From the sequence record PP216085: a stretch of 64,000 nucleotides of DNA; one strand, given 5' to 3'. Shown in pieces: positions 10,320 to 11,016 of the stretch. The notes under the pieces were generated by a model that saw nothing but the letters and a program-made list of their open reading frames with translations, searched no databases and had not been told where the DNA came from. Every line of letters begins with the position of its first letter. Positions within the stretch are counted from its first letter, which is position 1. Origin of the DNA: Escherichia phage vB_EcoM_HZ_ZJUN4. Position numbers and translations under genes: made by a program.

Positions 10320-10561
10320 TGTCTGAACAAACTATTGAACAAAAACTGTCTGCTGAAATCGTAACTCTGAAGTCTCGTATCCTTGATACGCAGGACCAGG
10401 CGGCTCGTCTGATGGAAGAATCCAAAATTCTGCAAGGAACTTTGGCTGAAATTGCTCGTGCAGTAGGTATCACTGGTGATACTATCAAAGTTGAAGAAAT
10501 CGTTGAAGCTGTCAAGAATCTTACTGCTGAATCTACTGATGAAGCAAAAGATGAAGAATAA
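10319..10561 (+). CDS. 57A: tail-fibre assembly chaperone gp57A (80 aa)
   Basis: 80-aa acidic helical protein [20 protein letters not shown]; matches T4 57A. Confidence 0.9.
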
Positions 10562-11016
10562 TGGAATTTAAAGACTTTTCAACGGGTCTTTATGTAGCAG
10601 CTAAGTTTTCAGAATTAACACTTGATGCGCTGGAAGAACTCCAGCGCTCTTTACGTGTTCCTAATCCAGTTCCTAGAGAAAAAATTCATTCGACCATATG
10701 TTATTCAAGAGTAAATGTTCCGTATGTTCCATCAAGCGGAAGTTTTGAAGTAGCTTCTTCTGGACATTTAGAAGTATGGAAAACACAAGATGGATCGACT
10801 CTTGTACTTGTGCTAGATTCTGAATATCTGCGCTGTCGACACATGTATGCGCGGGCACTAGGTGCTACACATGATTTTGATGATTACACACCGCATATAA
10901 CATTGTCTTATAATGTTGGGCCCTTATCATTTAGCGGTGATGTACAAATTCCGGTCGTATTAGATCGTGAATACAAAGAGCCTCTTAAACTCGATTGGGC
11001 AGATGATTTAAAATAA
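10561..11016 (+). CDS. 57B: 57B / Acb1-like 2H phosphodiesterase (151 aa)
   Basis: Two H-x-T/S-x motifs (HSTI near residue 43, HITL near residue 112) typical of the 2H phosphoesterase fold; position after 57A. Confidence 0.85.

Follow-up and report, generated by a model that had tools for sequence, protein, structure and literature searches.

What does the open reading frame between gene 57A and ipI encode: an enzyme that destroys the signals of CBASS immunity, as a preliminary description had proposed, or the RNA ligase named in many database records? The window, the whole 64,000-nucleotide stretch of Escherichia phage vB_EcoM_HZ_ZJUN4 (record PP216085) that was analysed, belongs to a Tequatrovirus, a relative of T4 and not T4 itself. 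We find that positions 10561-11016 almost certainly encode Acb1 (T4 gene 57B), a phage 2H phosphodiesterase degrading CBASS cyclic nucleotides, an assignment made through identity to a characterised protein. The Acb1 finding is already known, and the gene itself brings no novelty; the value here lies in the correct annotation, namely that this phage carries an intact wild-type anti-CBASS nuclease.

The acb1 reading frame and its relation to T4 57B

The reading frame lies on the plus strand at 10561-11016, as the preliminary description had placed it, and is intact, with 151 codons followed by a TAA stop. Over its full length of 151 residues the product matches residues 2-152 of T4 gp57B/Acb1 (NP_049750.1; NC_000866, 73952-74410) with 100% identity, and the catalytic histidines are conserved. 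At the nucleotide level the coding sequence differs from that of T4 at five positions, all of them synonymous, and no non-synonymous change is present. Over the 1.7 kb around acb1, Escherichia phage GEP001 shares 98.9% identity with the window, and many other phages share 98-99%.

As annotated, T4 gp57B begins with an additional methionine, and the reason is visible at the 57A/57B junction (10556-10566), which reads GAATAATGG in the window and GAATGATGG in T4. Whereas T4 has two adjacent ATG codons there and a TGA stop for 57A, in the window the upstream ATG is replaced by ATA and the 57A stop is TAA. The change costs only the first of the two adjacent methionine codons of the T4 annotation, and because T4's first ATG is ATA here, residue numbers in the window protein run one below the published ones (H43 and H112 for the published H44 and H113). 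The comparison suggests that the second ATG, at 10561, is the real 57B start in both T4 and this phage.

The preliminary description had pointed to two H-x-T/S-x motifs at about residues 43 and 112 and had called them diagnostic of the 2H phosphoesterase fold. Both are indeed there: a motif search of the translation finds the pattern twice, as HSTI at residues 43-46 (H43-S-T45-I; 10687-10698, plus strand; H44/T46 in T4 numbering) and as HITL at residues 112-115 (H112-I-T114-L; 10894-10905, plus strand; H113/T115 in T4 numbering). The diagnostic value did not hold, since at least two H-x-[TS] matches also occur in 16% of shuffles of the same protein, and the motif count alone is therefore not diagnostic. 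For this reason we dropped the count as evidence for Acb1 and used full-length homology instead. What makes the motifs meaningful is their position, since in the alignment to the Acb1 structure 7T26 each histidine falls on a catalytic one.

The published structures of Acb1 from Erwinia phage FBB1 show a 2H phosphoesterase fold in which the scissile phosphate is positioned above an HxT/HxT tetrad (H44, T46, H113 and T115), Y12, W74 and F107 provide aromatic contacts to the ligand, and residues 145-152 form a C-terminal lid that shuts over bound 3'3'-cGAMP (PMC9117128). The stacking residues correspond to Y11, W73 and F106 in the window protein and all three are present, so that every catalytic and ligand-contacting residue of Acb1 is conserved. 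The lid equivalent, mapped by applying the offset of -1 residue to the published numbering, would be residues 144-151 (10990-11013, plus strand), which are identical to T4. When the window protein is set beside six homologues from other genera, at 28-75% identity, Y11, H43, T45, P111, H112 and T114 are invariant.

The family searches agree with this. The protein matches the Pfam family PF23474, 'Anti-CBASS protein Acb1', at E 2.6e-60, with a score of 202.7 bits (cutoff 27), and the match runs end to end, residues 8-149 covering profile positions 1-144 of 144. At E <= 0.1 the Pfam search of this protein returned no family other than Acb1; a search of NCBIfam, which holds no Acb1 model, gave no match. 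The best match among solved structures is FBB1 Acb1 (7T26 and 7T27, E 4e-62), and no structure of the T4-type Acb1 sequence is among the PDB matches. From the alignment to 7T26, the window protein is assigned a compact 2H phosphoesterase fold. Taken with the tetrad, these matches bear out the earlier claim that 57B carries the 2H phosphodiesterase signature of Acb1. Of 50,697 phage records, 1485 contain a homologue of 57B, and in 498 of these the identity is 99% or more; in one 98.6%-identical phage record the same reading frame is named 'anti-CBASS protein Acb1'.

Acb1-like domains were also seen in other settings. In gp70 of Pseudomonas phage psageK9 (600 residues; 52-1851 of the locus sequence) a Phage_portal_3 domain is joined to a C-terminal Acb1 domain (E 1.9e-43) in which both HxT motifs are intact. 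This protein is homologous over its full length to the portal of cyanophage Pam3, solved by cryo-EM (8HDS, E 1.7e-153), which has HVT and HIS at the positions equivalent to the psageK9 motifs; the Pam3 portal paper does not mention a phosphodiesterase domain. Rhizobium phage RHph_I36 has an Acb1-like domain inside its annotated portal gene (1130-2977 of the locus sequence), and in Synechococcus phage Yong-M3-232 the domain forms a separate reading frame (1593-2144 of the locus sequence) that overlaps the end of the portal gene. The carriers of the portal-Acb1 arrangement (the psage phages, RHph_I36 and Pam3) form a group of 45-55 kb phages unrelated to this phage. A virion-associated cyclic-nucleotide phosphodiesterase in these phages is a possibility raised by the domain arrangement; our literature search found no paper linking Acb1 to portal proteins. 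Two further records differ in the gene itself. The homologue in Citrobacter phage CfP1 (1459-2082 of the locus sequence) has 207 residues and runs on for about 50 residues C-terminal to the Acb1 domain, and in Escherichia phage BYEP02 (OR757454.1, 89372-89901) the acb1 match falls into two pieces over 530 nt rather than 453, which may reflect an insertion or disruption.

Substrate and activity: the alternatives

T4 57B was found by activity-guided fractionation as the source of a 3'3'-cGAMP-degrading activity and, under the name Acb1, was shown to degrade CBASS signals as a 2H phosphoesterase (Hobbs et al. 2022, PMC9117128); the preliminary description had drawn on this characterisation, and correctly so. 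The same study compared plaque formation of wild-type T4 and T4 Δacb1 on E. coli carrying CBASS operons and used H44A/H113A as a catalytically inactive control (PMC9117128). In a transposon screen of T4 (HIDEN-SEQ), 57B/acb1 was dispensable on K-12, and insertions were depleted only on a CBASS-expressing host. For the phage analysed here, chemistry and anti-CBASS activity are assigned through sequence identity, since published work has demonstrated both for the T4 protein.

The name under which the gene is usually filed tells a different story. 'RNA ligase' is the label of 57B in the RefSeq record of T4, in many other records and in PHROG 755, and the 2H fold is common to Acb1 and to the LigT/CPDase enzymes. 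Read in this way, 57B would be a generic 2H RNA enzyme (a LigT-like 2'-5' RNA ligase or an RNA 2',3'-cyclic phosphodiesterase), perhaps serving tRNA repair beside the tRNA cluster. The distant homologue of phage CfP1 does give a match to 2_5_RNA_ligase2, at 16.5 bits, which is below the cutoff of 27. In the window protein, however, Acb1 is the sole Pfam match at E <= 0.1, with no match to a LigT or 2_5_RNA_ligase2 profile; the identical T4 protein accounts for the degradation of 3'3'-cGAMP; and a pocket for a cyclic dinucleotide is seen in the ligand-bound structure (PMC9117128). The RNA ligase name is an inherited one. With no RNA-ligase family match and with published biochemistry to the contrary, we rejected the annotation, and we regard an RNA-directed role for 57B as very improbable. 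The label is widespread on 57B homologues, including the RefSeq records seen here and PHROG 755, and just a few entries are named 'anti-CBASS protein Acb1', 'cyclic phosphodiesterase' or 'putative phosphodiesterase'; on 57B records, 'RNA ligase' is outdated.

A copy of acb1 might also be recognisable and yet decayed or inactive. Natural disruptions of acb1 are known in related phages, such as Bas43 (PMC13577387), and the split match in the BYEP02 record may be of the same kind. Against this, the reading frame in the window is intact, its product has the sequence of active T4 Acb1 and no catalytic residue is missing. A pseudogene was accordingly rejected, the nucleotide differences from T4 being synonymous throughout, and the chance that this copy is inactive is in our judgement negligible. 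A different kind of alternative holds that the natural role of Acb1 is wider than CBASS, the enzyme clearing any 3'-5' adenosine-containing cyclic oligonucleotide, for example the cA3 of type III CRISPR-like cyclases, at the cost of becoming visible to Panoptes. Acb1 does degrade cAAA as well (PMC9117128). In addition, Tevenvirinae phages whose acb1 is intact are restricted by Panoptes of types I and II, and phages carrying nonsense or escape mutations in acb1 evade it (PMC13577387). Since acb1 is intact here and has no non-synonymous change relative to T4, there is no sign of Panoptes-driven inactivation. This reading extends the main explanation and does not contradict the CBASS role; we consider it plausible, at somewhat below even odds. 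The published primers for the 'acb1 region' of Bas35, also a member of the Tevenvirinae, map to 10207-10230 (exactly) and to about 11482-11503 (with one mismatch).

Gene order, expression and the variable region downstream

The gene order in the window is gene 1, 57A, 57B/acb1, ipI, three small reading frames and then tRNA genes from 12405. Gene 1 (9606-10319, plus strand) encodes a dNMP kinase of 237 residues (Pfam DNMK, E 6.5e-104) and would be the first gene of a gene 1/57A/57B unit, within which 57A (10319-10561, plus strand; Pfam GP57, E 2.6e-50) encodes the tail fibre assembly helper. The TAA stop of 57A and the ATG of acb1 overlap by one base (TAATG), which suggests co-transcription of the two genes and, by inference, translational coupling. 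The terminator scan found no terminator-like site between genes 1, 57A and 57B.

Two sites matching T4 promoter patterns lie upstream. A middle-promoter-like site (MotA box TAATGCTTCA, 11 nt, then TATAAT) is found at 9554-9580 on the plus strand, just upstream of gene 1, and a match to the late-promoter consensus (TATAAATA) lies inside gene 1 at 9956-9963. On the strength of these consensus matches, either the MotA-type site or the late-type box could be a source of acb1 transcripts, and both would fit the middle/late expression reported for 57B/acb1 (bioRxiv 10.64898/2026.03.30.715471). The scan for promoters and terminators returned 14 sites against 13.1 expected from shuffles, that is, no excess. 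The promoter assignments rest on T4-specific patterns, and since the count did not exceed the shuffled expectation they are kept here as tentative.

Downstream, a spacer of 72 nt separates acb1 from ipI. It falls within a segment (11016-11094, plus strand) with an early-promoter-like TTTACA-17-TACTAT and a hairpin of -14.8 kcal/mol (z -2.4). This segment is the first of two direct repeats on either side of ipI; the second copy lies at 11382-11458, and the two share 54 nt at 78% and a further 25 nt at 84% identity. Both copies have the TTTACA-17-TACTAT element and a hairpin, whose stem sequences differ between the copies yet still pair. Such PeSL (promoter/stem-loop) cassettes, with the PST/T4 consensus TTTACW-N17-TAYWAT, have been proposed to mediate modular gene shuffling in T4-type phages (PMC4122927), and the repeats around ipI match that consensus.

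As had been described, ipI (internal protein I; 11089-11376, plus strand; Pfam IPI_T4, E 7.3e-54) is the next gene after 57B. It is followed by three small reading frames (11453-11638, about 11640-12017 and 12020-12307) at the positions of T4 trna.4, trna.3 and trna.2, none of which has a Pfam match, and by a cluster of ten tRNA genes at 12405-13236 (Gln, Leu, Gly, Pro, Ser, Thr, Met(CAT), Tyr, Asn and Arg). We compared this order with one record from each of five other genera of the Straboviridae (Tegunavirus, Bragavirus, Krischvirus, Lazarusvirus and Pseudotevenvirus). Every one of these records has, in order ahead of its 57B homologue, a gene at the gene 3 position, which is annotated as a tail completion or tail tube gene, a gene with the size and position of gene 1 (labelled dNMP kinase in four records) and a gene of the size of 57A (labelled tail fibre chaperone in two). 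The genes downstream of 57B are different in each genus. This conservation on one side and divergence on the other support the view, already put forward in the preliminary description, that 57B stands at the edge of a variable ip/tRNA region.

Some of the downstream genes, lying no more than about 1.2 kb beyond 57B, belong to families with a known or reported counter-defence role. Yersinia phage phiR1-RT encodes a member of the gp30.3 family there (2417-2734 of the locus sequence), for whose T4 counterpart, 30.3/AdfN, an anti-DarTG function is reported; in Krischvirus MIZ3 the protein is of the Dmd family (2680-2883 of the locus sequence). In the window, as in T4, the gene after 57B encodes IPI (Pfam 'nuclease inhibitor'). 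It is conceivable, if on balance doubtful, that acb1 is the fixed left anchor of a slot into which Straboviridae phages swap counter-defence genes by exchange through the PeSL repeats. If this were so, the three small reading frames after ipI would be candidate anti-defence genes.

Proposed action and comparison with known systems

The steps by which Acb1 would protect this phage can be set out from the work on the T4 and FBB1 enzymes. The host CBASS system would sense the infection, and its CD-NTase would make a cyclic di- or trinucleotide to switch on a lethal effector. Acb1, expressed as the last gene of the putative gene 1/57A/57B unit from middle or late promoters, with its translation probably coupled to that of 57A, would bind the cyclic nucleotide in a U-shaped pocket and distort it, such that the ribose 2'-OH could attack the adjacent 3'-5' phosphodiester. 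The published reaction is metal-independent and proceeds in two steps via a cyclic phosphate intermediate (PMC9117128). In the window protein the tetrad H43/T45/H112/T114 would provide the metal-independent acid-base catalysis, with a 2',3'-cyclic phosphate intermediate being resolved to a linear product. As the product is linear, the effector would never be activated and the phage would complete its cycle. From this one would expect the phage to plate on CBASS-bearing hosts and to be restricted by guard systems of the Panoptes type, which sense the depletion of cyclic nucleotides. Thus the observation in the preliminary description is confirmed and its interpretation of 57B as Acb1 is supported.

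The closest known system is T4 itself. The two phages share genes 1 and 57A upstream of acb1 and ipI downstream, the catalytic tetrad and aromatic ligand contacts of Acb1, and an identical IPI protein. They differ in gene 1, which encodes 237 residues in the window against 241 in T4 and in phage vB_EcoM_P8 (four codons fewer), and in the tRNA cluster: whereas T4 has eight tRNA genes and the homing endonuclease gene segB, the window has the Tyr and Asn tRNA genes in the place of segB, which leaves no room for it. FBB1 Acb1, at 68% identity over 141 aligned columns (of 144 residues), aligns with the window protein with only one gap, of a single residue, and the alignment takes in the two HxT motifs as well as the C-terminal region, but it is an orthologue from another phage, and the substitutions are spread over surface-facing parts. 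The LigT/2'-5' RNA ligase and CPDase branch shares with Acb1 the fold class and the paired HxT/S motif; it differs in having no significant sequence match to the window protein, and what Acb1 cleaves is a cyclic oligonucleotide, not an RNA end.
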